Positions 3,946-36,972 of a DNA stretch of 36,972 bases are shown here, in pieces. Position 1 is the first letter of the stretch, and each line of letters starts with the position of its first letter. The notes under the pieces are model-generated. The model saw only the letters and a list, made by a program, of their open reading frames with translations, did no database searches and had not been told where the DNA came from. Origin of the DNA: a bacterium. GTDB taxonomy: Bacteria; Margulisbacteria; WOR-1; CAVSGV01. The stretch is taken from positions 1 to 36,972 of the forward strand of contig JBDRDU010000073.1 in the NCBI GenBank assembly GCA_043820455.1, read 5' to 3'. The position numbers and the translations under genes were made by a program.

Positions 3946-4036
3946 AAATCCCAACCTCAAACCACAAACCTCCAAACAACTCACAAATCCAAAATCACAA
4001 CGTTTGGGATTTGGATGTTTGAAGTTGGAAGTTGAA
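3946..4036. repeat. Degenerate heptamer tract (AAATCCC/AACCTCA/AAATCCA) followed by its inverted copy
   Basis: aaatccc aacctca aaccaca aacctcc aaac aactcac aaatcca aaatcac then tttgggatttggatgtttgaagttggaagttg. Confidence 0.8.
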
Positions 4037-4054
4037 ATGTGTTATAATCCAGCC

Positions 4055-5188
4055 ATGCTAAGATATTTAACAGCAGGAGAATCACACGGGAAAGCGATAG
4101 TAGCCATACTTGAAGGCATGCCGGCCAACCTTAAGGTCTCCCCGGAAGACATTGATCAAGAGCTTAAAAGAAGACGGCTCGGGTATGGGCGTGGAGAGCG
4201 CATGTCCATAGAGAATGACAAGATCGAGATACTCTCGGGCATACGGCTCGGGAAGACCTTGGGCAGCCCGATAGCCCTTATGGTAAATAACCTCGATTAC
4301 GAGAACTGGAAAAAGATAATGCCCATTGAAGGGTCCAAGAACATATTTCAGGAGCCCTTGACGGCGCTGAGGCCGGGCCACGCGGACCTGACAGGCTGCA
4401 TCAAATACGGCCAGCAGGACATAAGGAACATATTGGAGCGGGCCAGTGCCAGGGGAACAGTTTCCCTGGTAGCCGTCGGCGCAATAGCCAAAAAGTTCCT
4501 TTCGGAATTCAAGATCTCTATCTTCAGCCACGTTGTCCAGATCGGCGGCGTAAAAGCTTCACTTGAAAAAAAGAAATATGAAGAATTGCATCGAATAGCG
4601 GAAGGGTCGGATGTCAGGTGTGCAGATGAGAAAGCGGCGATCCGCATGAGAAAAGAGATTGATGCGGCAAAAGATAATAAGGACTCGGTCGGCGGAGCGT
4701 TCGAAGTGGTGGTGCTTGGCGCTCCGGTAGGGCTCGGCAGCCATGTGCATCCGGACAGAAGGCTTTCCGGCAGGCTTGCCTCGGCTGTCATGTCCATCCA
4801 GGGGATCAAAGGAGTTGAAATGGGACTAGGATTTGCGGTCGCTTCAATTCCCGGATCAAAGGCCCACGATGAGATATTCTATGAGAACGAAAAATTTACA
4901 AGGCATACGAATAACGCCGGAGGCCTTGAAGGCGGAATAACCAACGGCGAGCCGATCATCATAAGGGCTGTAATAAAGCCTGTAGCGACGATAGGCAAGC
5001 CGCTTAACTCCGTTGATATTGTCACAAAAGAGCCTGTCAAAGCGCACGTTGAAAGGGCAGATGTGTGCCATGTGCCGTCGGCAGGGGTTATTGCGGAAGC
5101 TTCCGTGGCCATTGAGATCGCCAACGCGTTCCTTGAAAAATTCGGCGGCGACAGCATGGAAGAAATTGCCAATCGGTACAACGCGTGA
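4055..5188 (+). CDS. aroC: Chorismate synthase
   Basis: MLRYLTAGESHG start, RPGHAD, ERASAR, NNAGGLEGG; start trimmed to 4055; extended -10 at 4040-4048. Confidence 0.97.
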   Translation: MLRYLTAGESHGKAIVAILEGMPANLKVSPEDIDQELKRRRLGYGRGERMSIENDKIEILSGIRLGKTLGSPIALMVNNLDYENWKKIMPIEGSKNIFQEPLTALRPGHADLTGCIKYGQQDIRNILERASARGTVSLVAVGAIAKKFLSEFKISIFSHVVQIGGVKASLEKKKYEELHRIAEGSDVRCADEKAAIRMRKEIDAAKDNKDSVGGAFEVVVLGAPVGLGSHVHPDRRLSGRLASAVMSIQGIKGVEMGLGFAVASIPGSKAHDEIFYENEKFTRHTNNAGGLEGGITNGEPIIIRAVIKPVATIGKPLNSVDIVTKEPVKAHVERADVCHVPSAGVIAEASVAIEIANAFLEKFGGDSMEEIANRYNA

Positions 5189-5233
5189 TATAATTATGAG
5201 GTTCACTAAAAATCAACAGGAGGCATTGATCAA

Positions 5234-5605
5234 TTGTCAGTAAAAATAAGGCTTTCAAGGGTTGGAGCAAAAGGACAGCCCTCATACAGAGTGGTAGTAG
5301 CGGATGAAAGGGCTGCCAGAAACGGCAACATCATCGAAATTGTCGGGCATTATAACCCGCTCGTTGAACCCTCCTCATTTAATGTTGATAAGGATAAGGT
5401 CCTGGAATGGATCAAAAAAGGGGCCATCCCCACGCCGACGGTCCGTAAAATGCTCGGCAAGGCCGGCGTATTAAAACCTGTTGATTTTTCCACTTTCAAG
5501 AAGCGCGCCTCGAAACAAAAAGGCACTGCAGAAGAAGCTCTGGCGGCAAAAGCCCCGGAAGCCAAGCCTGCAGCAGAGGAAAAGAAACAGGCGGAAGCGC
5601 AATGA
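5234..5605 (+). CDS. rpsP: 30S ribosomal protein S16 with Ala/Lys/Glu-rich C-terminal tail
   Basis: SVKIRLSRVG...YRVVVAD...IEIVGHYNP; TTG start with GGAGG SD. Confidence 0.96.
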   Translation: MSVKIRLSRVGAKGQPSYRVVVADERAARNGNIIEIVGHYNPLVEPSSFNVDKDKVLEWIKKGAIPTPTVRKMLGKAGVLKPVDFSTFKKRASKQKGTAEEALAAKAPEAKPAAEEKKQAEAQ

Positions 5606-5844
5606 AGGAATTGGTAGAATATTTAGTTAAGGCCTTGGTGGACAAACCGGAAGAGGTCAATGTATCACAGACCGAAGGAGAATCAGTGACGATGATCGAG
5701 ATAAGGGCTGCCGCGGACGATGCGGGCAAGGTCATAGGCAAGGAAGGCAGGATCGCGAACGCGATAAGAACGCTGGTGAAGGCAGCTGGGGCAAAGAGCC
5801 AAAAAAGGGTTACAGTTGAAATAATGACAGAAGAGAGGAAGTGA
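5602..5844 (+). CDS. khpA: KH-domain RNA-binding protein (KhpA/YlqC)
   Basis: MKELVEYLVKALVD and GKVIGKEG (GxxG loop); canonical position after rpsP. Confidence 0.92.
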   Translation: MKELVEYLVKALVDKPEEVNVSQTEGESVTMIEIRAAADDAGKVIGKEGRIANAIRTLVKAAGAKSQKRVTVEIMTEERK

Positions 5845-5848
5845 GCTT

Positions 5849-6274
5849 ATGGCAGAAAAAGTTATCGAATTGAAAAGGGTGGTAATGGTAAAGGCGGTAG
5901 TTACAGAGGCTTTCAAGGACAATCTTGTCAAAGAGCTTGACAGGGCGATGAAAAATCTGGATGCGCAGGCGCAGCAGATGGATTTTCAGGCAAAGACATA
6001 CATGGAGGACCTTAAGAAAAAAGGAATGATCTCCCAAATGACGGCGTTCAAGCATCAGCTTGACGAAGAAAAGGGCAGACAGGCCGCGACGAAATCGGAC
6101 CTTTTATTGAAAATAGAAGAGGCGAAAAAGCTTGTATTGAACACGGAGTTCATACAAGGCCCGCTGGAGGGTCCAGTTGTTGTTAAAACAGGAGATAATC
6201 TTTACAAAAAGATCGGCGCCGCCGAGATACTCGTAAAAGACGGGATAATTCAGGAAGTAAGGAACGCAGAGTAA
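5849..6274 (+). CDS. YlqD-family protein
   Basis: LKRVVMVKAVVT start, coiled coil, V.TGDNL...EILVKDGII end; canonical position. Confidence 0.85.
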   Translation: MAEKVIELKRVVMVKAVVTEAFKDNLVKELDRAMKNLDAQAQQMDFQAKTYMEDLKKKGMISQMTAFKHQLDEEKGRQAATKSDLLLKIEEAKKLVLNTEFIQGPLEGPVVVKTGDNLYKKIGAAEILVKDGIIQEVRNAE

Positions 6275-6363
6275 ATCCCAATTCGCGGAGATAAACTCCG
6301 CTCTATGATTGAAAGAGCAGAGCTTGTCCCTGCGAAGATAGACAGCTACAAGCAGTATTAATT

Positions 6364-7143
6364 ATGAGAATCGATATTCTTACGCTTTTCCCCTCAATGT
6401 TCTCTCCGCTTGAGGAAAGCATAATAGGCAAAGCAAAAGACAAGGGCATCCTTGATATTGCCGTTACCGACATAAGAAGCTTTGCAAAAGACAAGCACAG
6501 GACAGCGGATGATACTCCCTATGGGGGAGGACCGGGAATGGTCATGAAGCCGGAGTTGATATTTGAAGCTGTTGAACATATAAAATCCTCCGCCAAAGGC
6601 GGATCCGCCTCAGGCGGAAAAACAAATCCAAAATCCAAATGTCAAAATCTCGATCAAAAAACGATATTACTTACGCCCGCGGGAAAAACTTTTGATCAGG
6701 ATACTGCCAAAGAATTATCAAAATATGATCACCTGATACTGATCTGTGGGCACTATGAGGGAGTGGATGAAAGGGTCAAGGATATCGTCGATGAGGAAAT
6801 ATCCATAGGAGATTATGTCCTTACAGGGGGCGAACTTGCCGCGATGGTCATTATTGATGCCGTATCCAGGTTCATTCCGAAGGTTTTAGGGGATGAATCT
6901 TCGTCCAAGGAGGATTCATTTTCCGATGATTTACTTGAACATCCCCAATATACAAAACCGGGCAGTTATCTGAACAAGAAAGTCCCGGAGGTCCTGCTTG
7001 GCGGGAACCACGGGAACATCGCCGGATGGAGAAGAGAACAAGCGGTCGTCAATACTTTTTTTAAAAGGCCGGACCTCCTGTCCAAAGCCGATATTACATC
7101 GAGCGATATGGCGTCATTGGAAAGGATATTTACGGGGGATTAA
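6364..7143 (+). CDS. trmD: tRNA (guanine37-N1)-methyltransferase with in-frame repeat insertion
   Basis: DDTPYGGGPGMVMK, CGHYEGVDER, SIGDYVLTGGE, LLEHPQYT. Confidence 0.97.
   Translation: MRIDILTLFPSMFSPLEESIIGKAKDKGILDIAVTDIRSFAKDKHRTADDTPYGGGPGMVMKPELIFEAVEHIKSSAKGGSASGGKTNPKSKCQNLDQKTILLTPAGKTFDQDTAKELSKYDHLILICGHYEGVDERVKDIVDEEISIGDYVLTGGELAAMVIIDAVSRFIPKVLGDESSSKEDSFSDDLLEHPQYTKPGSYLNKKVPEVLLGGNHGNIAGWRREQAVVNTFFKRPDLLSKADITSSDMASLERIFTGD
6582..6651 (+). repeat. In-frame insert in trmD: two 15-bp palindromes TCCGCC-NNN-GGCGGA inside a heptamer tract
   Basis: TCCGCCAAAGGCGGA (6589-6603) and TCCGCCTCAGGCGGA (6604-6618), then a aaac aaatcca aaatcca aatgtca aaatctc. Confidence 0.85.
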
Positions 7144-7144
7144 A

Positions 7145-7696
7145 ATGAACGTATACGTTGCACTGCTTCACTTTCCGGTATATAATAAGAACAAGGAAGT
7201 GGTCACGACCTGCGTGACCGGCTTTGATCTTTCCGACATAGCCAGAAGTTGTTGCACTTACGGGATCAAGAAATACTTTGTCGTGAATCCCATAAGCGGG
7301 CAGCGCCAGTTCGCGGAGAGGATCTTGAACCACTGGAAAAAAGAAGAGAGCTTGGATTTCAATTCCACAAGGGTTGAAGCTCTTAATTTAGTATCAATAA
7401 AAAAAGAATTAAAAGAAGTCATTGATGAAGTAAGCAAGAGCGGCAGCCCGGTGGTGGTAGCCACCAGCGCAAGGAAAAAGGGAAGTTACCCGTACGTCAA
7501 GTTGCGGGAAGAGATCAGAAAAGGAAAGAGGCCCTATCTCATTCTTTTCGGTACAGGATGGGGGCTTTGTGAAGAGGTAATAGACGGAGCGGATATCGTG
7601 CTTCCGCCGATCACCGGGAAAACAAAGTATAACCATTTATCGGTAAGGAGCGCGGCGGCGATAATAATGGACAGGCTGTTCGCAGCAGAGGAGTGA
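7145..7696 (+). CDS. SPOUT-type SAM-dependent RNA methyltransferase (TrmD-associated family)
   Basis: YVALLHFPVYNK, DIARSCCTYG, LFGTGWGL, YNHLSVRSAAAIIMDRL; start trimmed to the ATG at 7145. Confidence 0.88.
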   Translation: MNVYVALLHFPVYNKNKEVVTTCVTGFDLSDIARSCCTYGIKKYFVVNPISGQRQFAERILNHWKKEESLDFNSTRVEALNLVSIKKELKEVIDEVSKSGSPVVVATSARKKGSYPYVKLREEIRKGKRPYLILFGTGWGLCEEVIDGADIVLPPITGKTKYNHLSVRSAAAIIMDRLFAAEE

Positions 7697-8106
7697 ATAA
7701 AGTGAGCATTATTCAGGATGTGGAAAAAAGTTTCATGAAAAAAGAGATACCTGCCTTTAATGTAGGTGACACTGTAAGGGTTTTCTCAAAGATAGTCGAA
7801 GGGGACAAGGAACGTCTTCAGGCATTTGAGGGGACCGTCATAAAAAAACGCGGCAGAGGGATAGGCGAGGTCGTAACCGTAAGAAAAGTGGTCCAGGAGG
7901 TAGGGATAGAAAAAACTTTCCCGCTCCATTCCCCAAGGGTGGATAAGATAAAGGTAATTAAATCCGGGCGCACCAGAAGAGCCAAGCTTTATTATTTAAG
8001 AGGACGCATAGGATCAAAAGCTCTTAAGATCGAAGAAGCAGTAACGGAAAAAACTGTCCCTGCTGAAGCTGCGGCGAGCAAGCCTGCTGCCACTCCGGAT
8101 AAATGA
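7693..8106 (+). CDS. rplS: 50S ribosomal protein L19
   Basis: FNVGDTVRV...EGDKERLQAFEG...RRAKLYYLR. Confidence 0.97.
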   Translation: MNKVSIIQDVEKSFMKKEIPAFNVGDTVRVFSKIVEGDKERLQAFEGTVIKKRGRGIGEVVTVRKVVQEVGIEKTFPLHSPRVDKIKVIKSGRTRRAKLYYLRGRIGSKALKIEEAVTEKTVPAEAAASKPAATPDK

Positions 8107-8834
8107 ACCGTCCAAGATTTGACCAAAAAAAATTCACTGCCCATGATTTTAAGGCAAAAGAATCTCTTTTAAATATTCTGAAACCCCAGAAAATAGAGGA
8201 ACCGCCCAAACCAAAGAAGCGGCCCTGGCTGCTCGACACGCTTAAAGTGTTCATTGCCGCATTCATCACAGCCCTGGTCATAAGGATGTTCCTTTTCCAG
8301 GTCTTTTATATTTCCACCAATTCCATGGAACCGGCATTAAGCGCCGGCGACGGGATCATTGTGAACAAGCTTATATACGGGATAACAAACCCGTTCTGGG
8401 GAGCGAATGATAAGGAAAAGCTCCTTTTTGTACTGCCGAACCCGTTACACAAAAAGCGCATGTATATCGCGAAGGCAAGGTACATAGCGAGATTTTCGCA
8501 TAGCCCGAAAAGGATGGATGTCATCGTGTTCAGGGCTCCCGCAAATGCCGGCGAGCTGGCAAAAAGAGTAATAGCGCTCCCCGGCGAAGAGATCAAGATC
8601 AGAAAAGGCGTTATTTATGCGAATGGAAGGCCTTTAAAAGGAAAATACGCGGTCCTTAAAAACAAGTCCGGCTTTGGACCGGTTAAGGTCCCTGCCGATT
8701 CGTATTTTGTCCTGGGGGACAATAGGTCCGATACAGGCGACAGCAGGCATTTGGGAGCTGTCTCACGGGATAATATAATAGGTGTTTTAGCCGCGAGAAT
8801 ATGGCCTTTGGGCAAGATCCGAACTTTTAAATGA
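8103..8834 (+). CDS. lepB: Signal peptidase I
   Basis: TM helix, SMEPAL catalytic Ser, KRVIALPGE catalytic Lys, FVLGDNR..S.DSR-like box. Confidence 0.9.
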   Translation: MNRPRFDQKKFTAHDFKAKESLLNILKPQKIEEPPKPKKRPWLLDTLKVFIAAFITALVIRMFLFQVFYISTNSMEPALSAGDGIIVNKLIYGITNPFWGANDKEKLLFVLPNPLHKKRMYIAKARYIARFSHSPKRMDVIVFRAPANAGELAKRVIALPGEEIKIRKGVIYANGRPLKGKYAVLKNKSGFGPVKVPADSYFVLGDNRSDTGDSRHLGAVSRDNIIGVLAARIWPLGKIRTFK

Positions 8835-9466
8835 TTGCCCCCTCGATGAGGCATGAGTTAAGATTGAAAAGACAGGGCGCAAGCTTTGTTGCCGGGGTGG
8901 ATGAAGTCGGGATCGGGCCTCTTGCCGGGCCTGTTGTTGCCGCTGCAGTGATCCTCCGCGATGATGTAAAGATAAAGGGACTGGACGATTCAAAAAGACT
9001 GACCCACGGGAGCAGAGAAAAATTGTACGGCATCATCATTGATTCATCCGTTTCCATCGGCATCGGCATAGTGGACAGCTGCATCATAGACAGGATAAAT
9101 ATCCTCCAAGCTTCATTAAGGGCAATGGAAGCCGCCGTGAACTCTCTTTCAGAAAAACCTGACCATATACTTGTTGACGGCATCAGAAAAATACCGGGCA
9201 TTGCAATCCCGCAGACGAGCATTAAATACGGGGACAGCATAGCATCAGTTATAGCGATAGCGTCCATAATTGCAAAAGTGTTCCGTGACAGGCTTATGGA
9301 ACATTATGATCGTGTTTATCCGCATTATGAGTTTTCGATCCATAAAGGCTATGGAACAAAAAGACATTTCAAGCTTCTTGGGAAATTCGGACCGACCGCG
9401 ATCCACAGGCTGTCCTATCAGCCGGTGATGGATTGCTTAATAGCCAAAGGGCTTATGTTCATATGA
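8831..9466 (+). CDS. rnhB: Ribonuclease HII
   Basis: AGVDEVG.GPLAGPV, DDSKRL, LVDG, AKVFRD, HKGYGT. Confidence 0.93.
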   Translation: MIAPSMRHELRLKRQGASFVAGVDEVGIGPLAGPVVAAAVILRDDVKIKGLDDSKRLTHGSREKLYGIIIDSSVSIGIGIVDSCIIDRINILQASLRAMEAAVNSLSEKPDHILVDGIRKIPGIAIPQTSIKYGDSIASVIAIASIIAKVFRDRLMEHYDRVYPHYEFSIHKGYGTKRHFKLLGKFGPTAIHRLSYQPVMDCLIAKGLMFI

Positions 9467-9488
9467 CATTCTGAAACCCAGAATTTGC

Positions 9489-9518
9489 TTGACATTCATG
9501 ACATGTGTGAGCTATAAT
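9489..9518 (+). promoter_or_regulatory. Sigma70 promoter of the HU gene (TTGACA-N18-TATAAT)
   Basis: Both hexamers are perfect consensus; AGGAGG SD downstream. Confidence 0.75.
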
Positions 9519-9571
9519 TCCAACAGAGTCTAGATTTCCTCTGACTATCTTTCGAAAAGGAGGTGAAATAG

Positions 9572-9844
9572 ATGAACAAGCAGGAATTGATCGCTCAAGT
9601 AGCCGCAAAGACAACACAACCCAAAGCCCTATGCTCCAGAATCATTGATACCACGTTCACATTGATGAGTGGTGCGTTGAAAAGGGGCGAAAAGGTCCAA
9701 ATGGTGAATTTCGGCAGCTGGAAAAGATTAAGAAGGAAAGCGCGCGTTGGCAGGAATCCGAAAACGGGACAGCAATTGAATATTCCAGCAAGAAATGTCG
9801 TGAAGTTTTCGGCCGGACAGGAATTATTGAGCTCTATCAACTAG
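9572..9844 (+). CDS. hup: DNA-binding protein HU
   Basis: MNKQELI, FGS, ARVGRNPKTG, IPA..VVKF. Confidence 0.93.
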   Translation: MNKQELIAQVAAKTTQPKALCSRIIDTTFTLMSGALKRGEKVQMVNFGSWKRLRRKARVGRNPKTGQQLNIPARNVVKFSAGQELLSSIN

Positions 9845-9867
9845 GATAATTGGTAGAATATCATAGA

Positions 9868-9911
9868 TAAACCCTCTATGTTCAGATCGTTAAGGAGCAT
9901 AGAGGGTTTTT
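9868..9911 (+). terminator. Intrinsic terminator after HU
   Basis: AAACCCTCTATG...CATAGAGGGTTT stem followed by T tract. Confidence 0.8.
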
Positions 9912-10040
9912 GTTTGGCTTGATGTAGAGTTTTTCGTCATTTGTTGTCTTCCCCGACACTTCACTGTGCTCAGGACAAGCTCTTCAACGGGAGGTCTATC
10001 CCATTTCATATTTGGCAAGATAATTGCTATTAATTCTGAT

Positions 10041-11925: not shown

Positions 11926-11943
11926 AGGATAAGGAGGATAAAA

Positions 11944-12492: not shown

Positions 12493-12530
12493 TATAATAT
12501 TTTATTCATTAAGCTTCTTACCTTTCTTGC

Positions 12531-12558
12531 TTGAAATGATCCCCCTTAGGCGTATAAT
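12531..12558 (+). promoter_or_regulatory. Sigma70 promoter TTGAAA-N16-TATAAT for the small ORF
   Basis: Consensus match; SD-like AAGGCGGTGA follows. Confidence 0.6.
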
Positions 12559-12582
12559 CTCTAAACAAGGCGGTGATATATT

Positions 12583-12687: not shown

Positions 12688-12847
12688 TAGAATGGATTGA
12701 TAGTCCTGGTGGGAGGACGGGGTGGATCGCCCGCATGGACAATAATAGATAGTGCGTTTTAGGGCATAGTGTGCTATACTTCTTTACATAAGAGTCGAGG
12801 TTAATGGTTTCTTAGTTAGATAGTTTTTATTAGATAGCTCGAAATGC

Positions 12848-16327: not shown

Positions 16328-17541
16328 TATTTGTTCTCCTTAAGGACCTTCCTGTAAATATCCTCTATTTTATCAGTTATGATCCTCCAAGTATAATGTT
16401 TTTCCATGAGCTGCCTTCCCCTGCGGCCAAATGCCTTGGCTTCCTCGGCATTCCTGACAAAATACAGCATTTTTTTCGCCAGTTCATCTATATCCTCGGG
16501 ATCGTCAACCAGGAGACCGGTTTCCCTGTCTTTGACTATCTCAGGTATGCCGCCTCGCTTTGATGCTATCAGGGGCAGGCTCATTGCGGAAGCTTCATAA
16601 CATACGGTAGGGGAGGCGTCCATCACTATGGACGGTACCACGACAGCGTTCGCGAGCCCGTAAATGTTCGGTATGTCCGGCCTGTTAATGAATCCGGTGA
16701 ATATGATATTCTCTTTTACCTTTTCCGAAGACCTTTGAAGCTCTTTTATGAAAGGAGTTATCTTGGCCTGCCCGCCGAAAAAACTTGAACCGACGATCAT
16801 CAGTTTTACCCGTCTGATCCCCAGGTTGGCTATCAGGACTTTCGCGGCTTCCAAAAGCTGTCCCGCGCCTTTGTCCTCTGAAAGCCTGCCGATATACATG
16901 AAAATGAAATCGTCTTTATCTATTCCGTATTTTTCCCTCAGTCCGTTAAGGGTGTCCGGGCTTAATTTGGCAGGATCGAATTTATCCGCGTCTATACCGT
17001 GGCTTACAGTATGGCATTTGTCTTTATATTCGGGAAATCTGCTTAAAACCTCCGCCTCAACAGTAAAATCGCTGCAGCCCACGAAACCGTCCACAAGATC
17101 AAGGTATTTTTTGGCCTTTTTCCCGCTCATCTCCATAAGATAGTTGTTGTAATGATGGAGGATGATCTTTACGCTGTTCCCGAGATGTTTTCTCAGTATC
17201 GGCAAGAACCAGGGCCTGTTCATAACCTCGATCAGGTCCGGTTTTACCTCTTTTATCTGGCCGATTATGTCAAAGACATACGGAAAATAATTCAGCGTAG
17301 TAAGGTGCCTCAGATTGATCTTGAATTCTTCCCGTGGAGACTGGCAAATCCTCCGGTGCTCTACATTCCCGACAGTTTCCTTCAACGGAAGATCGTCGAT
17401 CCCATACTCGCAATTCGAGAAGACATAAGGCTTGAATTCCCTGAAAAGAGGGACCGTTTCGGCGACGACAGCTTGAATTCCCCCGCCCCTTATCGGCGGA
17501 ATGGGAAATGAATTCGGCGCTATTATCGCTATTTTTTGCAT
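16327..17541 (-). CDS. Glycosyltransferase family 4
   Basis: GRLSEDKG, VPS....ASPTVCYEA, GGIPEIV. Confidence 0.9.
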   Translation of the reverse strand: MQKIAIIAPNSFPIPPIRGGGIQAVVAETVPLFREFKPYVFSNCEYGIDDLPLKETVGNVEHRRICQSPREEFKINLRHLTTLNYFPYVFDIIGQIKEVKPDLIEVMNRPWFLPILRKHLGNSVKIILHHYNNYLMEMSGKKAKKYLDLVDGFVGCSDFTVEAEVLSRFPEYKDKCHTVSHGIDADKFDPAKLSPDTLNGLREKYGIDKDDFIFMYIGRLSEDKGAGQLLEAAKVLIANLGIRRVKLMIVGSSFFGGQAKITPFIKELQRSSEKVKENIIFTGFINRPDIPNIYGLANAVVVPSIVMDASPTVCYEASAMSLPLIASKRGGIPEIVKDRETGLLVDDPEDIDELAKKMLYFVRNAEEAKAFGRRGRQLMEKHYTWRIITDKIEDIYRKVLKENK

Positions 17542-18713
17542 AAAGATCTTATCAGCCCTTCAACTTCTTTTGTGAATCTTTTTGTTGACCCTTCGGTGCT
17601 CTTGGCCGCGTTGTGGCCGAGCCTCTTAACCAACTTCCTGTCGCTGAGCTTGAGCATCTGTTTTGAAAGGTCCTGCACATCAACGATCGCCCCCTTTACC
17701 AGAAGCTGCCTGTCTTTTCTCGGCTCCCATTTAGCGACCCTGGTCAGGAGCCCGTTGTAGCCGTCCTTTACCCATTCGTTCATCGGCGGAGCTTTGACCG
17801 TGATGACTGGAAGCCCGAGCGAAAGCGATTCTATGAAAGGGATGCCTATCCCTTCCCATTTGCTGGGCAATACGGAAACATGGCATGAACGGCCGAGTTC
17901 GATCAAATCGTTCATGTGCAGGTCTTTTTCTGTTACCCTTATCCTCCCGTTGTCATTTATTATGTCGCGCATCTTCTTTGGGTATTCTTTGATCGGCCTC
18001 TGCGACTTAAGTATAAGGATGATATTTTTGTTATTTTTACAGGCGGACTCGAACGCTTCAACGACAGCAAGCGTGTTCTTTCGCCACCCGGCACCGCCGT
18101 ACCCCGCATTATGGAAGAACCTTATCGGCGGATTAATGCCCGTGCCGGCCGGCTTATAGGTGTCATTATCCACTGCCCAGCGGATGAACCTGAGGTTCTT
18201 GAACCCGTGCTTCTTGAGCAGATCGTACGTGCACCTGACGGGGCACATAAGGACGGTGTTTTTCTTGTATCCGTCGAATTCCTCTTCCTTTATCGTTTCG
18301 TAGTTGATCACGTCCACCGTGGCGACGCCGTTCTTATTGCACCAGTCGAGGACCTTTGGATGTTCCAGCCTGTCCGGGAAGAAAACGACCTTTAATCCTT
18401 CTTTTTTGATCCAGCGGATCACTTTCCAGGGCTTTATCAGTTTTGTGAACACGAGATTTTTATAGCCCCAGTCCGCCTCATCCTTCATGTATTTATTGTA
18501 TGCAAATATGGAGATATCGTGCTTTGCGCTCAAACAGCTGGACAAGAACCTTGATTGGTATGGGACTCCTGTATTGTGCCAGTCCGAGACGATCCCGACC
18601 TTAGGGCCTTTTTTTGAAGGGCTCTTTGAAGTGATCGCTCTTACTTCGATCTCGTTCTTGTAGAAATAGAAAAGAACAGGAAGAAACAGGGCGATCAGGA
18701 TTAACCAGAGCAT
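17529..18713 (-). CDS. GT-B glycosyltransferase (GT4-like) with N-terminal membrane anchor
   Basis: Hydrophobic N-terminus; PSKWEGIGIPFIESLSLGLPVI motif. Confidence 0.85.
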   Translation of the reverse strand: MLWLILIALFLPVLFYFYKNEIEVRAITSKSPSKKGPKVGIVSDWHNTGVPYQSRFLSSCLSAKHDISIFAYNKYMKDEADWGYKNLVFTKLIKPWKVIRWIKKEGLKVVFFPDRLEHPKVLDWCNKNGVATVDVINYETIKEEEFDGYKKNTVLMCPVRCTYDLLKKHGFKNLRFIRWAVDNDTYKPAGTGINPPIRFFHNAGYGGAGWRKNTLAVVEAFESACKNNKNIILILKSQRPIKEYPKKMRDIINDNGRIRVTEKDLHMNDLIELGRSCHVSVLPSKWEGIGIPFIESLSLGLPVITVKAPPMNEWVKDGYNGLLTRVAKWEPRKDRQLLVKGAIVDVQDLSKQMLKLSDRKLVKRLGHNAAKSTEGSTKRFTKEVEGLIRSLCKK

Positions 18714-18772
18714 AATAAGGAATTATAGCACTCAAAGGGAAGATGGGGAATGGGTTAGGGAGTAGATACTGG

Positions 18773-18937
18773 TTTGAAGCCGGAAGTTGGGTTTGGAAGT
18801 TGGCCCAAATTCCAGCTTCAATGCCCAGCGTCAAACCCGCCTCCAAACCCTAATCCAACTTCTAATTGAAAAAACCTTTACGAGGTATTAGAATAGCATT
18901 TGGATGTTGGAATTTGGGGATTGGGATTTGGAGGTTT
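18773..18937. repeat. Heptamer-type inverted-repeat cluster enclosing a promoter
   Basis: ggaagttgggtttggaagttgg; cctccaaaccctaatccaacttctaa versus ttggatgttggaatttggggattgggatttggagg; TTGAAA-N17-TAGAAT at 18866-18894 lies between the arms. Confidence 0.75.
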
Positions 18938-18958
18938 ACCCAAAAGGGGGTGCTTGTT

Positions 18959-26699: not shown

Positions 26700-26702
26700 T
26701 GC

Positions 26703-29012: not shown

Positions 29013-29032
29013 TTGTTGGAATTTTACCACAA

Positions 29033-31162: not shown

Positions 31163-31231
31163 GAGCATGACATTATACCAAAAAAATGCCCCCCCGACGA
31201 GTCGAGGAGGCACTTAATGATATCTATCCAG

Positions 31232-31849
31232 CTACATCAAGTACTGCAGGGCCAAAGAGAATGTCGAATAGCTTTCGTTGTCCGCAGTGAACATCGCGAG
31301 TTCGCCCATAAAACTCACCGTTTTGTTCAATGAGTATTTTATGCCGCCGCCCCATTGGAGCGCTGATGATGAAGTTGACGCTGTTCCCGTCGCTTTCGCT
31401 GAAAATTGCAGAACATTGAGAAGGCCGTATACCGTGAAATTGTTCCTTAAAGATTTGCTTATTTCCACGCCGAATCCCATCGTGCTCGTTGAATAATCCT
31501 TTGACGATGAGGAATCATAATTAAAAACCCCGGCCATATCGATAGGGTCTTTTGCGGACATCTTTAAGAAAGTATATTTTGCCCCAACCCCCATTGTCGT
31601 GGAGCTGACTCCCGCAACAGATCCCATGGCTAGCTTGCCGATCAGGTCGAGGTCTTCCGTCGCGCCGTATATGATCCTCGGGCCGAACTGCGTCAAGCTT
31701 GAATCAAGGGCTTTAACGTTAGTCGAGCTGTAAAATCCCTGGATAGCCAGGTTATCCATGCCTATCGGCAGGGCTGACATTAGGTTTTCTGCGTAGCAGG
31801 TGCTGACCAATAAACTCGCGATCAAAATCGATAATAATATTTTTTTCAA
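31232..31849 (-). CDS. Probable outer-membrane beta-barrel protein
   Basis: Signal peptide, alternating beta-strand pattern, C-terminal FSLALQYLM; TTG start with GGAGGTG SD. Confidence 0.65.
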   Translation of the reverse strand: MKKILLSILIASLLVSTCYAENLMSALPIGMDNLAIQGFYSSTNVKALDSSLTQFGPRIIYGATEDLDLIGKLAMGSVAGVSSTTMGVGAKYTFLKMSAKDPIDMAGVFNYDSSSSKDYSTSTMGFGVEISKSLRNNFTVYGLLNVLQFSAKATGTASTSSSALQWGGGIKYSLNKTVSFMGELAMFTADNESYSTFSLALQYLM

Positions 31850-31948
31850 ATATTTTCACCTCCCTATGGGAATAATTCTACACAAAGCAGTTTTTAAGTC
31901 AACTCATAGTTTGCAAGATACTTTTTATGATGATAATATTGCTTCCCC

Positions 31949-32803
31949 ATGCCAAAGAAAAAGAACAAATTCGATGAACTTGTAAGGATCGTCCGCCGCC
32001 TCCGCGCCCCGAACGGCTGCCCGTGGGACCGAATTCAAACTCACGCGACCCTTAAGCCCTATATGGTGGAAGAGGTATATGAAGCGCTGGAAGCCATAGA
32101 TTCCAAGGATCACAGGAAGCTGGCCGAGGAGCTTGGCGATATCCTTTTACATATAGTAATGCACGCGGAGATGAGCAGGGAAGAAGGGAAATTCGAGATC
32201 GGTGACGTCATTGATTCGATCTCGGCAAAAATGGTAAGGCGCCACCCCCATGTTTTCTCGAACAAAAAAGTCAGATCGGTCGAGGAAGTGTGGAAAAAAT
32301 GGGAAGAGATAAAAGGGGAAGAGGTGAAGGGAAAAGGGGAAAAGCACAAAGGCATTCTCGAGAGCGTCCCGCATGCCCTGCCCGCGCTGTACCGGGCCGA
32401 CAAGGTCCAAAGAAGGGCTGCAAGGGTAGGGTTCGACTGGAACAACGTGGCAGGTGCTTGGCGGAAAGTTGATGAGGAGAAAAGAGAGATTCACGAACTG
32501 CTGCGTAAATCCAAACTTCAAACCTCAAAATCCAAAACAAATCCCAAAACCAAAGCACCAAACAAAAAACAAAAGGAGAGGATTACAGAAGAGATTGGCG
32601 ATCTGTTGTTTGCCATAGTTAATGTCACAAGAAAGCTGGATATCGATGGAGAGGAAGCGCTTCAGAAAGCCACCTCAAAGTTCATGAGAAGGTTCAAGGA
32701 GATCGAGCTTCACGCCAGGAGATCCGGAAGGCATGTCAGCAAGCTGACCCTCCCCGAAATGGACGCAGTGTGGAACGACATAAAAAGGCGAGAAAAAAGA
32801 TAA
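31949..32803 (+). CDS. mazG: Nucleoside triphosphate pyrophosphohydrolase MazG with in-frame repeat insertion
   Basis: GCPWD, EEVYE, EELGD, RRHPHVF, GFDW, EEIGDLLF. Confidence 0.95.
   Translation: MPKKKNKFDELVRIVRRLRAPNGCPWDRIQTHATLKPYMVEEVYEALEAIDSKDHRKLAEELGDILLHIVMHAEMSREEGKFEIGDVIDSISAKMVRRHPHVFSNKKVRSVEEVWKKWEEIKGEEVKGKGEKHKGILESVPHALPALYRADKVQRRAARVGFDWNNVAGAWRKVDEEKREIHELLRKSKLQTSKSKTNPKTKAPNKKQKERITEEIGDLLFAIVNVTRKLDIDGEEALQKATSKFMRRFKEIELHARRSGRHVSKLTLPEMDAVWNDIKRREKR
32507..32563 (+). repeat. In-frame heptamer tract in mazG
   Basis: aaatcca aacttca aacctca aaatcca aaac aaatccc aaaacca aagcacc aaac, encoding KSKLQTSKSKTNPKTKAPN. Confidence 0.85.
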
Positions 32804-32857
32804 TCCCCCATCTCGCATCTCGCGCCGCTCATCTCATTGTGTTATAATCCAGCTCTT

Positions 32858-34684
32858 ATGAAAGATACATGGAAAAACCTGTTCTTCTACATGCTGTTCC
32901 TGCTAATAATAGTGTCGCTCCTGGCGCCGTTATTCAGCGGACAGCCAAAATCTTCAGAGATAGCTTTTTCGGATTTTCTGAACAACATTGAGAACGGCAT
33001 TGTCCATAGTGTATCGGTGAACGGCGACATTATTGCAGGCAAACTTAAGAACGGCCAGACCTTCAAGACAAGAGCATTCAATTACCCGGGATTGATACCG
33101 ATGCTCAGGGAAAAAGGTGTCAGTATCAGCATTGAGCAGCCGTCGGATTCCGGTTGGTTCTGGAACCTGATCATCCAGCTGGTGCTTCCGCTCCTGTTCT
33201 TTGCGGGCCTCTGGTGGCTCCTTATGAGGCAGGCTGCGGGTTCCTCAAGCCAGGCACTGTCCTTTGGAAAATCCAGGGCAAAACCGTTGCAGGGAAAGAT
33301 AAAGATCACTTTCGCTGATGTGGCGGGGGTGGATGAGGCAAAGGAAGAATTAAGCGAGATAGTGGAATTCCTGAAAACCCCCCAGAAATTCCAAAAACTC
33401 GGCGCGAAGATACCAAAAGGGCTTTTATTGATGGGCGCCCCGGGGACGGGAAAGACCCTTCTGGCAAGGGCCATAGCCGGGGAGGCCGAGGTCCCTTTCT
33501 TTTCCATATCCGGCTCTGATTTTGTTGAGATGTTCGTCGGCGTAGGTGCCTCAAGAGTAAGGGACCTGTTTACTCAGGCAAAAAAACAAACTCCCTGCAT
33601 AATATTCATGGACGAGATCGATGCTGTTGGCCGCCACCGTGGGGCGGGGTTGGGCGGGGGCCACGACGAAAGGGAGCAGACGCTGAATCAATTGCTTGTG
33701 GAGATGGACGGGTTTGATCCGAACACCAATATAATTGTGATCGCAGCTACTAACAGGCCGGATATCCTTGATCCTGCTCTGCTTCGGCCCGGAAGGTTTG
33801 ACAGGCAGATAGTTCTCGACAAGCCTGACCTCAACGGAAGGCGCGGCATTTTGAAGATCCATGTGAAAGGAAAGCCGCTGGCTAAGGATTTTGACCTTGA
33901 TATTATTGCAAGAAGGACCCCCGGATTCACCGGAGCGGACCTCGAGAGCGTATTGAATGAAGCCGCCATACTTGCCGCGAGGGCCAATAAAAAACAGGTA
34001 TCAATGAACGAAGCGAGCCAGGCCATAGACAGGGTCATTGCGGGCCCCGAAAAAAAGAGCAAGGTGATATCCGACAGGGAAAAAGAGATAATCGCATATC
34101 ACGAAGTAGGCCACGCCATCCTTGCAAGGACACTTAAGAATGCCGATCCGGTGCACAAGATATCCATACTTCCAAGAGGCCTTGCGCTCGGCTACACGCT
34201 TCAACTTCCCCTTGAAGACAAGTACCTGACCACAAAGAGCCAGGCAATGGACCAATTAACAGTAATGCTCGGGGGGCGGGTTTCGGAAGAGCTGATCTTC
34301 AACGAGCTGACATCCGGGGCTCATAACGATCTTGAACGTGCCACGGAAACTGCGAAAAAAATGGTGTGCGAATTCGGGATGAGCAGACTGGGCTTACGGA
34401 CATTTGGAAAGCGCGACAGGCAGATCTTCTTGGGACGCGACATCACCGAAATGAAGGATTACGGCGAAGAAACTGCGGATGCGATAGACAAGGAAATAAG
34501 ACATATAATAGATGAATGCCACACAACGGCGAAAAAAATACTTTCGGCGAACAAGAATAAGCTCATCGCGATCGCGAAAAAAATGAAGGAAGTCGAGACT
34601 CTCGAGGGAGAAGAACTGGAGAAGGTGTTCAATGATCTGGGGCTTAGGGCGAAAAACGGCGGGGGAAGAAAACCCACAGGCTGA
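32858..34684 (+). CDS. ftsH: ATP-dependent zinc metalloprotease FtsH
   Basis: Two TMs, [30 protein letters not shown]; start trimmed to 32858. Confidence 0.97.
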
Positions 34685-35570
34685 AGAAAAACTTATCGAA
34701 TGTGTCCCGAACTTCAGCGTCGGGCACGACAGTTCCGTTATCCACAAGATAGTTGATTCCATAAAAGGATCCTCGGTAGATGTCATAGACCAGTCATACG
34801 ATAAAGACCATAACAGGCTTGTTATCACGTTCATTGGAAAATCCGAAAATGTCCTTAATGCCGCGTTCAACTCCATCCAAACCGCTTCAAAACTTGTTGA
34901 TATCAATAAGCAGACGGGCGTCCATCCTTTTATCGGCGTGGTTGACGTGGTGCCTTTCATCCCGCTTAAAGGGGCGAAGATGAATGATTGCAAGGACCTT
35001 GCGAAGTCTCTCGGCAAAATGGTCGCCGATCAGTTGAAGATCCCGGTTTATCTTTATGGGGAAGCCGCAAGGAACGGGAATTTCAGGCATTTATACAACA
35101 TAAGGCACGGCGGGCTTGACCATTTAAAGACGGCGATCTCCACAAAAGATTTTAAGCCTGATTTCGGCGAGCCGAAAATTCACCCCACCGCAGGGGCGGT
35201 CGCGATAGGCGCAAGAGATTTTCTCATCGCTTTTAATTTCAACCTGGATACGGACGATCTCCAGGCGGCGAAAGATATCGCAAAAATGATAAGGGAAAAA
35301 GACGGAGGGCTTCCGGGGATAAGGGCTCTTGGGGTCCCGCTCAATTCAAAAAAAATAGTCCAGGTAACGGTGAACGTGACGCATTACAAAAAGACCTCCC
35401 TGAAGGTACTCATGGACAGGGTGAAAAAAGAATGCGAAGCCAGGAAGATCCAGATACTCAATACAGAGCTTATTGGCCTTGTCCCGAAAGATGCCACTTT
35501 CCCTGGGATGAAGGAAACCCTCATGCTGGAAGACTTTGACGAAGGAAAGATACTGGAAACTTATCTATGA
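34632..35570 (+). CDS. Glutamate formiminotransferase (FTCD N-terminal part only)
   Basis: LIECVPNFS.G, D.DHNR, HP.IG.VDVVPF.P, HPTAGA, GAR.FLIAFN; start uncertain. Confidence 0.88.
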   Translation: MIWGLGRKTAGEENPQAEEKLIECVPNFSVGHDSSVIHKIVDSIKGSSVDVIDQSYDKDHNRLVITFIGKSENVLNAAFNSIQTASKLVDINKQTGVHPFIGVVDVVPFIPLKGAKMNDCKDLAKSLGKMVADQLKIPVYLYGEAARNGNFRHLYNIRHGGLDHLKTAISTKDFKPDFGEPKIHPTAGAVAIGARDFLIAFNFNLDTDDLQAAKDIAKMIREKDGGLPGIRALGVPLNSKKIVQVTVNVTHYKKTSLKVLMDRVKKECEARKIQILNTELIGLVPKDATFPGMKETLMLEDFDEGKILETYL

Positions 35571-36972
35571 GCGAAGAACTCTCTAAAGTATACGAGCCGA
35601 AGTCCGTCGAGGAAAAGTGGTATAAAATATGGGAGCAAAATAATTACTTTGCTCCAAATGGATCGCTTTCGACCGCGCCTTTCGTCATAGTAATTCCCCC
35701 TCCGAACGTGACCGGCTCGCTTCACATGGGGCATGCGCTTGACAACACTATCCAGGACATCCTTATAAGATATAACCGGATGAAAGGGTTGAGAGCGCTT
35801 TGGGTCCCCGGGACCGACCATGCCGGCATTGCTACCCAGAACGTGGTTGAAAAGGAATTGTATAAGGAGAAAAAGAGAAAAGAAGATATCGGCAGGGAAA
35901 AATTCGTCGAAATGATCTGGAAGTGGAAGGAAAAATACGGCGGCCAGATAACGATGCAGCTAAGGCGGCTTGGAGCATCCTGCGACTGGACAAGGGAACG
36001 GTTCACAATGGATGAGGGATTATCGAAAGCGGTCAAAAAAGCGTTCGTAACTCTCTATAACGACGGGCTTATTTACCGCGGCAAAAGAATGGTCAACTGG
36101 TGCCCGAGATGCAAGACGGCTATCTCGGACATTGAGGTGGAGTATACGGAAGAAGCCGGCAAACTATGGCATCTAAAGTATCCCGTTGAAGGATCAGGGG
36201 AATTTATCACGGTTGCCACGACGAGGCCCGAGACGATGCTGGGGGACACGGCGGTGGCGGTGAATCCGGAAGACGCCAGGTACAAGCATTTTATCGGGAA
36301 AATGCTCGTTCTTCCCCTTGTGGGACGAAGGATCCCGGTGATAAAGGACAGCTTTGTGGACCCGGCATTCGGCACGGGAGCGGTCAAGGTAACGCCCGCT
36401 CACGATCCGAACGACTACGAGATCGGCCTGCGGCACAACCTTCCTCAGATAATAATGATGCATCATGACGGAAAAGTGCATATCAGTCATTTTCCGGATG
36501 AAGAAAAAAAACATATCGCTTCGTATGAGGGGATCGACCGCTTCAAGGTGAGGGATATGATAATGAGCGACCTTGAAGGGGGCGGCTATCTTGATAAGAT
36601 CGAAGATTATAAGAACAGGGTTGGCAGATGCTATCGATGCAAAACAATAATAGAGCCCAGTCTTTCCGACCAATGGTTCGTAAGAATGAAAGACCTGGTA
36701 AGGCCTGCCATACAGGCGGTTGAGGACGGAAAGATCAGTTACATTCCCGATCGCTGGACAAAAGTATACATAAACTGGATGGAAAACCACCGTGACTGGT
36801 GCATTTCCCGGCAGATATGGTGGGGGCACCGCATACCCGCATGGGAATGCGGAAATCCAAAATCCAAAACCCAAAATCCAAAAGAAGGATGTGGAGAAAT
36901 TATCGTGTCAGAGGAAACTCCCGCAAAATGCCCCAAATGCGGAGGGACAAATTTGATCCAGGATCCGGATGT
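35567..36972 (+). CDS. valS: Valyl-tRNA synthetase, 3' end beyond window
   Basis: PPPNVTGSLHMGHA, GTDHAGIATQ, ATTRPET, GTGAVKVTPAHD, DWCISRQIWWGHRIPAW. Confidence 0.97.
   Translation, partial: MSEELSKVYEPKSVEEKWYKIWEQNNYFAPNGSLSTAPFVIVIPPPNVTGSLHMGHALDNTIQDILIRYNRMKGLRALWVPGTDHAGIATQNVVEKELYKEKKRKEDIGREKFVEMIWKWKEKYGGQITMQLRRLGASCDWTRERFTMDEGLSKAVKKAFVTLYNDGLIYRGKRMVNWCPRCKTAISDIEVEYTEEAGKLWHLKYPVEGSGEFITVATTRPETMLGDTAVAVNPEDARYKHFIGKMLVLPLVGRRIPVIKDSFVDPAFGTGAVKVTPAHDPNDYEIGLRHNLPQIIMMHHDGKVHISHFPDEEKKHIASYEGIDRFKVRDMIMSDLEGGGYLDKIEDYKNRVGRCYRCKTIIEPSLSDQWFVRMKDLVRPAIQAVEDGKISYIPDRWTKVYINWMENHRDWCISRQIWWGHRIPAWECGNPKSKTQNPKEGCGEIIVSEETPAKCPKCGGTNLIQDPD
36853..36880 (+). repeat. Four tandem heptamers in frame in valS
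   Basis: aaatcca aaatcca aaaccca aaatcca inside WEC-GNPKSKTQNPKEG-CGE. Confidence 0.85.

Follow-up and report, generated by a model that had tools for sequence, protein, structure and literature searches.

Our analysis showed that a 36,972-nucleotide stretch of Margulisbacteria DNA (contig JBDRDU010000073.1, hereafter the window) carries tandem arrays of 7-nt units, or heptamers, both between genes and within trmD, mazG and valS (Table 1), and that these arrays belong to a class-wide heptamer-array system which is coupled, in two phyla, to genes of the four-helix-bundle family PF05635. The window is contig C73 of a metagenome-assembled genome (MAG), G000, of 1.21 Mb in 117 contigs (47% G+C, 80% complete), whose nearest named relative, judged by ValS, is a Candidatus Margulisiibacteriota MAG with 68% identity. 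The comparison set comprised 146 genomes of the phylum, 65 of them in the class of G000 (64 besides G000 itself) and 81 outside it, and five relatives of the same family (G001 to G005) were compared with G000. Open reading frame (ORF) calls were crude and greedy, with over-extended gene starts, and served as a guide only; 'coding' below refers to Pfam-confirmed genes, three tract-bearing ORFs with no Pfam match (C43, C19 and C30:917) being excluded as doubtful.

The five heptamer tracts described in an initial annotation of the window are all present where it placed them; its list was incomplete in that further tracts lie at 3722-3752, 4003-4037 and 32803-32823. Tandem Repeats Finder (TRF) reports AAATCCA in 4.4 copies at 36853-36883 (91% matches) and in 2.3 copies at 6624-6639, together with period-7 rows at 3722-3752, 4011-4034 and 32809-32823. 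Both intergenic loci of the window sit between divergent genes (ilvD and aroC; a glycosyltransferase gene and the ORF before glnA), while the TrmD, MazG and ValS tracts are all read in frame, as had been noted. The scan against Rfam brought no family to threshold anywhere in the window.

Table 1. Heptamer tracts, arms and host genes in the window, and related loci elsewhere in G000 (positions refer to the window unless a contig is given; MFE, minimum free energy; z, fold score against shuffles).
Feature	Position	Strand	Basis or remark
ilvD	1968-3620	-	neighbour of the 3722-3752 tract
TTTGTCA/TTGGTCA-type heptamer tract between divergent ilvD and aroC	3722..3752	-	TRF 4.4 copies; lag-7 score 12; one of 29 AATGWCMAATGWCMAAT matches
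A/C-rich arm, AAATCC-type heptamers, degenerate AAAC junction, upstream of aroC	3946..3998	+	blastn-short match to the ~60-nt element
G/T-rich partner arm (TTTGGGA TTTGGAT GTTTGAA ...) pairing with 3946-3998	4000..4040	+	MFE -22.4 for 3930-4060; locus z only -1.6
trmD, host gene	6364..7143	+	PF01746, E 2.4e-62
30-nt hairpin doublet (TCCGCC-N3-GGCGGA twice), read SAKGGSASGG, nested in heptamer tract	6589..6618	+	absent from G004 and G005 trmD
AAAC-AAATCCA-AAATCCA-AATGTCA heptamer tract in trmD, read KTNPKSKCQN	6619..6651	+	alignment; model
Glycosyltransferase gene	17529-18713	-	one side of the 18773-18937 cluster; ORF upstream of glnA on the other
Cluster of G/T-rich and A/C-rich arms, two hairpins	18773..18937	.	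MFE -70.6 for 18760-18950
mazG, host gene	31949..32803	+	PF03819
~60-nt AAATCC element, one arm, MazG inter-domain linker, read KSKLQTSKSKTNPKTKAPNKKQ	32507..32568	+	common to G004 and G005
mazG-element junction motif	32531-32547		motif search
CATCTCG x2 tract (GAGATGC family, complementary strand) between mazG and ftsH	32803..32823	+	TRF; lag-7
valS 5' part, host gene, rest on contig C107	35567..36970	+	PF00133
AAATCCA x4 tract between two ValS Cys codons (C-GNPKSKTQNPKEG-C)	36853..36883	+	TRF; orthologue alignment
PF05635 gene, arms AAAGTCA/AAAGGCA	C99:1742-2083		
PF05635 gene, arms AACTTCC/AACATCC/AAATCCC	C30:532-855		
PF05635 gene, arms AAATGAC/AAAATCC	C48:4779-5114		
PF05635 gene, arms AACAATT	C25:862-1221		
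PF05635 fragment, arms AATTNCC	C43		
MutL; GlyQ (C-terminal tail); TsaD; MiaB-like radical-SAM enzyme; Tgt; IleS	G000		Pfam-confirmed genes with heptamer tract
Class-III aminotransferase, BioA-like (two tracts); TrpE-like enzyme; ThiE fusion (tail)	G000		Pfam-confirmed genes with heptamer tract
C-terminal ValS part	G000		second tract in valS
Phosphoglucomutase-family enzyme; FTHFS; aspartate kinase	G000		Pfam-confirmed genes with hairpin doublet

The tracts of the window are part of a genome-wide excess. A lag-7 detector with a threshold of our own setting (score of at least 12) found 72 period-7 tracts in the 1.21 Mb of G000 against 2, 3 and 1 in three order-5 Markov simulations, which disposes of the possibility, allowed for in the initial annotation, that shuffled genomes would give such tracts equally often. 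Control periods of 5, 6, 8, 9, 10 and 11 gave 3, 8, 10, 21, 6 and 3 tracts in G000 with the lag detector; a stricter lag-7 scoring (mismatch -2) yielded only 16 tracts, and the counts given here come from the looser version. With TRF, G000 has 118 period-7 rows, compared with 22-32 in six Markov simulations and with 28 and 40 rows at periods 6 and 8. Several unit families coexist: AAATGAC/AAATGTC/AATGACC, AAAATCC/AAATCCC, AACAATT/G, GAGATGC, AAAGGCA/AAAGTCA and AATTGGN. Many tracts of G000 lie at contig ends and the valS tract is duplicated on C107, so that the true number of tracts is probably higher. At that duplication, the window segment 36793-36972 (about 180 bases, ValS residues 423-468 with the AAATCCA tract) is repeated in reverse at C107:6793-6930; C107 carries the remainder of valS, and the assembly break adjoins the repeat.

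The layout (7-mer)n-AAAC-(7-mer)3, already remarked upon in the initial annotation, proved to be a real dispersed element of about 60 nt. A blastn-short search with an A-rich arm on another contig (C30:4206-4275) returned 34 high-scoring segment pairs in G000, among them the mazG copy (88.7% over 62 nt), a copy in the aminotransferase gene of C112 (91.7% over 60 nt) and further copies on C84, C109, C76, C25 and C103. The motif TCCMAAACAAATCYMAA, which spans the 'AAAC' junction, has 11 copies in G000 and one or two in each of 12 of the 64 other class genomes; outside the class one genome of 81 has it, and the reversed pattern has no match in any of the 146; the sub-motif AAACTTCAAACYTCAAAATCC occurs five times in G000. 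The AATGWCM double unit AATGWCMAATGWCMAAT is more widespread, with 29 matches in G000 and presence in 52 of the 64 other class genomes and 5 of the 81 outside (reversed control, 3 matches in total).

Intergenic copies had been described as inverted pairs, and this is correct for a part of them. The 13 intergenic loci that we folded form long imperfect hairpins, an A-rich arm followed by a G/T-rich arm, and 21 of 50 non-coding loci fold below shuffles at z<-2 (13 of them at z<-3), compared with only one of 12 coding loci; since only 21 of the 50 fold well below shuffles, many intergenic copies are single arms. An ungapped test for an inverted partner, which was too strict, reached at least 70% in 6 of 57 non-coding and 1 of 15 coding tracts. 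Upstream of aroC (window 4040-4058), the repeat hairpin is followed at once by a TATAAT hexamer, 6 bases ahead of the likely aroC ATG (4056), a placement that would fit a very short or absent leader.

On alignment with orthologues, the coding tracts are seen to be insertions into variable loops of essential proteins; 16 Pfam-confirmed genes of G000 carry tracts, namely trmD, mazG, valS and thirteen more (Table 1). The empty alleles that the initial annotation had proposed to seek among orthologues exist in close relatives, and its counter-hypothesis, in which repeat-free orthologues have loops of equal length at these sites, did not hold: ValS has C-x13-C in G000 and C-x-C in empty alleles, TrmD of G000 is 10-21 residues longer than that of other-family members, between a helix and a strand, and the aspartate kinases of all five relatives lack the hairpin peptide. 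The ValS loop is empty (C-x-C) in 14 of 29 relatives, filled in 11 and without the Cys motif in 4; within the family it is empty in G005, G002 and G003, the junction lying directly after the first Cys codon. Its fillings differ between genomes: AAATCCC with AATGACC (G004), AAATCCC (G001), AATGTCC x3 (G024), AATGACC/AATTACC/AATGTCC (G018), AATGACA/AATGTCA (G011, G030), AAAGTCA (G019), AATCCTA (G021, G022), a hairpin plus AAATGAC (G025) and a GAACCTT type (G009). In the AATGACA-type inserts the middle unit, as read from the sequences, is always altered, where a perfect run would place TGA in frame. The MazG linker shows the same filled and variable pattern across families on orthologue alignment, and the contents of the phosphoglucomutase loop and the MutL linker likewise differ between genomes. 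In TsaD the loop of G000 contains the AAATCC element; G004 and G002 have an in-frame pair of inverted GAGATGC arms there, G005 has TAACGCG units, and G001 has AAATCCC. An 18-codon insert in the TrpE-like enzyme is absent from the best matches in all five relatives, which are about 50% identical and may be paralogues. At the TrmD site, the same-family genomes G004 and G001 have other K/N/Q/S/T-rich inserts, and the insert of G000 is predicted to be disordered, residues 80-94 of the AlphaFold model (mean pLDDT, the predicted local distance difference test score, 75) forming a coil with pLDDT <50 between helix 63-77 and strand 98-109. In other families these two loops, of TrmD and of ValS, are occupied by different and longer inserts, such as PLSFSPLSRGRCPELCRGTEG in G011 trmD and a 25-residue GAACCTT-type insert in G009 valS.

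According to the initial annotation, coding copies carry one arm only, always with the A/C-rich strand as sense. An A/C-rich sense strand is the case for 14 of 15 tract-gene pairs in G000; the exception is GcvT, which is doubtful as an insert, having no extra length against its profile and a tract in the opposite orientation. In the relatives G004 and G002, TsaD has both arms in frame. The other strand of AAATCCA would encode W/I/L/D/F/G, and the orientation bias may therefore represent a selection filter rather than a rule. Two observations on mazG in relatives belong here. In G001 the gene switches frame right after the heptamer tract (matches 2-212 and 188-284 in overlapping frames), and trmD and mutL are also split; these frame changes could result from a unit change whose length is not divisible by 3, or from misassembly at the repeats. 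In G002 the mazG match (G002:C8:265809-266654) contains 10 stop codons (4 TGA, 1 TAG and 5 TAA) and is probably a pseudogene.

Several observations point to renewal of tracts within genomes. In G000 the BioA tract shares 71% identity with its orthologues (flanks 82-87%) and 84-89% with intergenic copies of G000 itself; between G004 and G005 that tract is 91% identical. Unit variants are genome-wide properties: doublets of AAATCCG number 0 in G000, 10 in G005, 5 in G004, 5 in G001, 1 in G002 and 0 in G003, whereas those of AAATCCA number 8 in G000 (7 loci), 1 in G005, 3 in G004, 2 in G001, 1 in G002 and 0 in G003. We rejected CpG decay as the cause of a change from AAATCCG to AAATCCA, the observed/expected CpG ratio being 1.05-1.08 in G000 and 1.11-1.19 in the loci of the relatives. 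The BioA similarity, the replacement of loop contents in TsaD, phosphoglucomutase and MutL, the genome-specific units and the lack of CpG depletion together argue for copying between loci within a genome.

The trmD tract contains a second element, which the initial annotation, correct as to the heptamers, had not separated from them: a hairpin doublet of 30 nt (6589-6618). The motif CCGCC-N3-5-GGCGG is the commonest 5-bp-stem hairpin in G000 (60 occurrences), and G000 has 10 sites with the 30-nt doublet; 17 of the 64 other class genomes have 1-7 such sites, and the 81 genomes outside have none (control, 0). Set against the G004 sequence, the trmD doublet adds exactly 30 nt within the heptamer tract, and G005 lacks it as well; the doublet of the aspartate kinase is absent from all five relatives, and both insertions are specific to G000 in this comparison. 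The same 30-mer lies in different genes in G004, G005 (by eye, in the tail of a sigma-54-like ORF), G022 and G137, always read SAKGGSASGG, and the G022 copy is again nested between heptamers. We take this to be a second, smaller element, a 15-nt hairpin that usually occurs as the 30-nt doublet, nests in arrays and also enters genes in frame. A single DNA run, from a groundwater metagenome, is listed for the organism (share 0.07), and no RNA run holding the organism was found; the metagenome consists of contigs only, with a few pieces of 151-222 nt at 100% identity and a depth of about 2 for the organism, and at the two edges of the doublet it shows records that end loosely, 22 of them at 6589 and 10 at 6620, with 3-4 at the 3722-3752 tract. 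A further family of small palindromes (CCCTCTCC ... GGAGAGGG) lies in the MutL linkers of G003 and G001, where it is in frame, and at a site in G012 (G012:C1:1023507-1023600) to which we return below.

The initial annotation saw no candidate enzyme in the window, and the candidates indeed lie on other contigs. The clearest of those it had suggested is the four-helix-bundle protein, whose genes are physically bracketed by repeats. A tblastn search with two G000 proteins found six loci, of which five encode full PF05635/TIGR02436 proteins and one, on C43, a fragment below cut-off; the C30 protein matches PDB 2rld (5 chains, 'Uncharacterized protein') with E 4e-17. Inverted heptamer arms bracket five of the six loci (Table 1), while only 4.1% of 5000 random 320-nt windows of G000 have a tract within 150 nt. 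The upstream arm of the C30 gene carries the junction motif of the mazG element (C30:479-495), which identifies the AAATCC element of the window with the arm type of that gene. Among ten loci of other genomes returned with the family search, six have tracts on both sides, within 12-51 nt. For 40 further PF05635 genes the numbers are 23 with tracts on both sides and 30 with at least one (17 and 23 of the 29 from the class, 6 and 7 of the 11 from outside it), against a background of 0.22 tracts per kb in 333 kb of relatives' housekeeping loci, or about 3% per 135-nt flank; these 40 loci, like the ten plasmid loci below, were picked by us out of ranked lists.

The association extends to a second phylum. 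A tblastn search of plasmids with a four-helix-bundle protein from Nostoc returned 28 records, nearly all cyanobacterial, and ten loci chosen from different genera, near-duplicates being skipped, all have inverted heptamer arrays on both sides of the gene, with a different unit in each, for example GGGAACA...CTGTTCC (Nostoc C052), AGGGTGT...CTACACC (Calothrix) and TCAGGAG...CTGACTC (N. punctiforme); the arrays in Pseudanabaena, of AAAAGCT and AAAAGCC, are long. The copy on pCC7120alpha has an array downstream only. Four-helix-bundle genes with long arrays (to about 28 units) also adjoin cas genes, in the order cas6-gene-cas4 in Pseudanabaena pPg_01 and just upstream of cas4 in Anabaena sp. 90 pANA02; proximity of PF05635-type genes to cas genes is indicated in PMC3936711 and fits the cas6-gene-cas4 arrangement.

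When 65 PF05635 genes were pooled under a single rule (score of at least 9, within 130 nt), 41 were flanked by tracts both upstream and downstream, and 51 on one side or more. In 23 of the 41, the upstream unit is the reverse complement of the downstream unit to within one mismatch; the mean distance is 1.63, whereas shuffled partners give 3.41 and in none of 2000 shuffles fall below 2.93. Protein identity and unit distance are correlated (rho -0.22, reached by 0 of 500 label permutations, phylogeny ignored): half of the pairs with at least 70% protein identity have units within one mismatch, against 1-2% of pairs below 50% identity, and the eight protein pairs in the former class have a mean unit distance of 1.75. 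PF05635 genes with GAGATGC arms are present in G004 and G001 (72% identical proteins), and G006 carries GGAGATG; these genes supply the partner that the GAGATGC tracts of G000 lack.

PF05635 also follows the repeats across genomes. Matches are found in 60 of the 65 class genomes (mean 5.1) and in 20 of the 81 outside (mean 0.42), and among 14 control genomes only in Bacteroides thetaiotaomicron. Within the class, copy number correlates with AATGWCM matches (rho 0.44, kinship ignored); outside it, PF05635 occurs in four of the five heptamer-carrying genomes and in 16 of the 76 non-carriers (kinship ignored), and the highest copy numbers there, in G093 (6) and G101 (5), belong to heptamer carriers. 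The other candidates put forward in the initial annotation fared less well. G000 has one IS200-like Y1 gene (C25:2197-2541) with its own end hairpins, none of the listed hairpin doublets being on C25. The Y1 family is present in 41 of the 65 class genomes and 32 of the 81 outside, with rho 0.22 against heptamer load, and by our tally AATGWCM matches occur in 36 of the 41 class genomes with Y1 and in 18 of the 24 without; we accordingly rejected a Y1/HUH transposase as the main driver, its presence tracking repeat load only weakly. In both G000 (C25:697-4041) and Nostoc pCC7120alpha (3776-5673), a tnpA of the IS200/IS605 type is found some 1 kb away from a four-helix-bundle gene. A reverse transcriptase likewise found no support as candidate, RVT_1 (PF00078) having no match in the 80%-complete G000 assembly.

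One locus bears on the mobility of the whole unit. In G016 an arm, a 106-codon gene and a second arm (about 490 nt) align to three congeners by their flanks only: the flanks are directly contiguous in G139 (11378|11379), overlap by 8 nt in G025 and enclose in G012 an unrelated palindromic insert of 94 nt, from the family mentioned above. The insertion point is right after a stop codon (TTTTAG|CTCTTC). Arm segments have 11 further matches in G016 and 3 in G012; the ORF matches only other PF05635 genes. Since the empty alleles of G139 and G025 contain no array, the arms and the gene arrived or left together.

From these findings we consider it probable that the tracts of the window are gene-less copies, comprising one arm or a pair, of the heptamer arrays at the ends of very small PF05635-bearing insertion elements. 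The full-length element would consist of a heptamer array, one PF05635/TIGR02436 gene for a four-helix-bundle protein (Avd-like, '23S rRNA intervening-sequence protein') and an inverted array, each gene copy having its own heptamer unit. We infer that the protein acts on its own arms and that the gene-less arrays depend on it: these would be non-autonomous derivatives, spread or renewed by copying, through transposition-like insertion or gene conversion, in a process requiring the protein to bind its own array. Within genes, copies would survive only if in frame, stop-free and hydrophilic, that is with an A-rich or purine-rich sense strand and peptides such as NPKSKIQ, MTNDKxQ and EMRDxRCEMR, and would then change by multiples of 21 nt and by replacement. 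The initial annotation had already thought of a non-autonomous spreading element that builds new protein loops, which fits the exact empty sites, the near-identical copies at non-orthologous sites and the disordered TrmD insert; the templated repeat addition that it offered as an alternative received no direct support.

A number of observations weigh against this reading. The MazG and IleS tracts are orthologous and have diverged about as much as their flanks (73-87% and 72-80% identity, respectively), evolving like ordinary coding sequence, so that not every tract is renewed. The C108 copy of PF05635 in G000 has no flanking arms, nor do 14 of the 65 pooled genes have a flanking tract at the threshold used, and the GAGATGC tracts of G000 have no resident gene in the 80%-complete assembly. 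When every G000 tract was to be placed with the arms of some resident gene, 53 of 67 could be assigned; 200 controls with shuffled letters averaged 26.5 and went up to 56, so that the test as designed is not significant. G144 has 29 heptamer matches and, at 90% completeness, no PF05635 match. No target-site duplication was seen at the few junctions inspected (ValS, TrmD, aspartate kinase and G016). Our correlations ignore phylogeny, and fragmented MAGs lose repeats at contig ends. Finally, the accessible text of PMC10053308 gives a biochemical activity for PF05635 only in the role of Avd in diversity-generating retroelements (DGRs).

The strongest alternative, which we nevertheless regard as unlikely, is that the arrays are the target of the PF05635 genes rather than their ends: independent host or selfish hairpins into whose loop the genes home, becoming bracketed without having caused the arrays. 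Small hairpins do nest in arrays, at trmD, C109:2991, G022 and in the C25 and C48 arms, unrelated elements reuse the same loop or site, and some genomes combine a high load with few PF05635 matches (58 heptamer matches and one PF05635 match in G117, 29 and none in G144). The co-variation of protein identity with arm unit is hard to reconcile with pre-existing targets, however, as are the array-free empty alleles at the G016 site.

We find it improbable that the tracts are microsatellites formed in situ, with replication slippage in 7-nt steps expanding chance proto-repeats and similar units arising by mutational or selective convergence rather than by copying between loci. Heptanucleotides are the commonest long class of simple sequence repeats in many bacteria, for which polymerase slippage has been proposed (Mrazek 2007, as quoted in PMC4692102 and PMC4679880), G005 has perfect (AAATCCG)4 arrays, and one site may hold different units in different lineages; slippage would nonetheless leave unexplained the non-periodic order of unit variants over about 60 nt that many loci have in common, the complete 30-nt doublet in an aspartate kinase whose relatives, five of five, have no proto-repeat, and identical doublets in non-orthologous genes of different families, and single 7-nt steps in essential genes would shift the frame. 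Least credible, to our mind, is a reading as selected cis-elements, whether bound by some abundant protein with affinity for nucleic acids or acting as hairpins of the terminator or uptake-signal type, which their function would preserve and which genes would tolerate in the way they tolerate DNA uptake sequences: the persistence of one unit family across most families of the class, the inverted pairs between genes and the regulator-binding role proposed for TAACTGA repeats (PMC4679880) are outweighed by the dozens of unrelated units, one per PF05635 gene, the genome-specific unit variants, the position of both window loci between divergent genes rather than at gene ends and the absence of any Rfam family in the window.

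The arrays resemble several known systems in part. Like the short tandemly repeated repetitive elements (STRRs) of cyanobacteria, they are dispersed tandem 7-nt units of several families that can often form hairpins between genes, and such arrays surround the ten plasmid genes described above; the host here is a margulisbacterium rather than a (heterocyst-forming) cyanobacterium, and copies lie in frame in protein genes. The unit itself is apparently not shared: AATGWCMAATGWCMAAT has no match in the 408-kb Nostoc plasmid pCC7120alpha, in whose first 50 kb we found four period-7 tracts, all with units other than AATGWCM, and we rejected the presence of the same unit in cyanobacteria on this basis. 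The STRR2 unit, which we take to be TT(G/T)GTCA, would presumably be the same as the TTTGTCA family here. An STRR is reportedly located within a functional RNA gene, going by the title of a 1997 article by Vioque. Small dispersed repeats (SDRs) are nested in heptamer repeats, a subject that PMC5861425 touches on for SDR5.

Rickettsia palindromic elements (RPEs) are also short repeats found in frame in unrelated housekeeping genes, with peptides compatible with function; they are about 150 bp long and, in the accessible part of PMC10969869, are not described as 7-periodic and have no known partner gene. The inserts described here are 30-70 nt long, 7-periodic, mostly single arms, PF05635-linked and in another phylum. 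PF05635 is the only ORF of small insertions at several sites within 23S and 16S rRNA genes (bioRxiv 10.1101/2024.02.27.582315), and here too the ORF (23S_rRNA_IVP) lies between pairing arms; those intervening sequences are in rRNA genes, whereas the sites seen here are intergenic, with gene-less arms in protein genes. PF05635 'resembles the Avd protein', a nucleic-acid-handling accessory of DGRs (PMC10053308), and the protein of one relative matches the bAvd-like family PF22296 weakly, with 30.6 bits where the cut-off is 40; in contrast to DGRs, no reverse transcriptase was found in G000 (80% complete) and the arrays are short tandem units. Hairpin doublets, inverted arms, many gene-less copies per genome and one IS200-like Y1 gene recall the repetitive extragenic palindromes and bacterial interspersed mosaic elements (REP/BIME) mobilised by REP-associated tyrosine transposases (RAYT), but the Y1 gene here is not flanked by these hairpins and the Y1 family tracks load weakly. 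Terminal inverted repeats, indicated by the folding non-coding loci and the matching upstream and downstream units, are a feature of miniature inverted-repeat transposable elements; here, no transposase-encoding parent was seen, the full-length partner carries only the PF05635 gene and no target-site duplication is evident at the few junctions inspected.

The TAACTGA and GGGAATC repeats of Beggiatoaceae, Cyanobacteria, Bacteroidetes and Xanthomonas are likewise dispersed heptamer direct repeats with a patchy phylogenetic distribution (PMC4679880, PMC4692102), and for the TAACTGA heptamers it was stated that 'no mechanism is evident' (PMC4679880). These repeats differ in being mostly intergenic, TAACTGA having stops in every frame when read forward, and the accessible portions of both papers mention no link to four-helix-bundle proteins. 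At the level of titles and abstracts, we found no literature joining PF05635 or four-helix-bundle proteins with heptamer repeats, the supplementary tables of PMC4679880 and PMC10053308 possibly bearing on the point, and none joining Margulisbacteria with repeats.

It is possible, though we advance it tentatively and as less likely than the narrower reading given above, that PF05635/TIGR02436 proteins are the sequence-specific trans-acting factors of unrecognised tiny mobile elements with heptamer-array ends, each paralogue recognising its own 7-mer, and that one mechanism lies behind the STRRs, the PF05635 rRNA intervening sequences, the Bacteroidetes and Beggiatoaceae repeats and the continual rewriting of surface loops in essential proteins, with within-genome renewal, in Margulisbacteria. 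Heptamer repeats have been catalogued for decades in cyanobacteria and other bacteria without a mechanism, and PF05635 proteins are widespread and, as far as the sources cited go, uncharacterised outside DGRs. Their coupling provides a concrete hypothesis, a protein with a cognate 7-mer, that is testable in tractable organisms such as Nostoc and Anabaena. It is of relevance to the annotation of MAGs, in which contigs break and frames shift at such tracts, and to the reading of 'insertions' in phylogenetic marker proteins. For protein evolution, it reveals how selfish repeats make and exchange loops time after time in repair proteins, tRNA synthetases and enzymes of tRNA modification.

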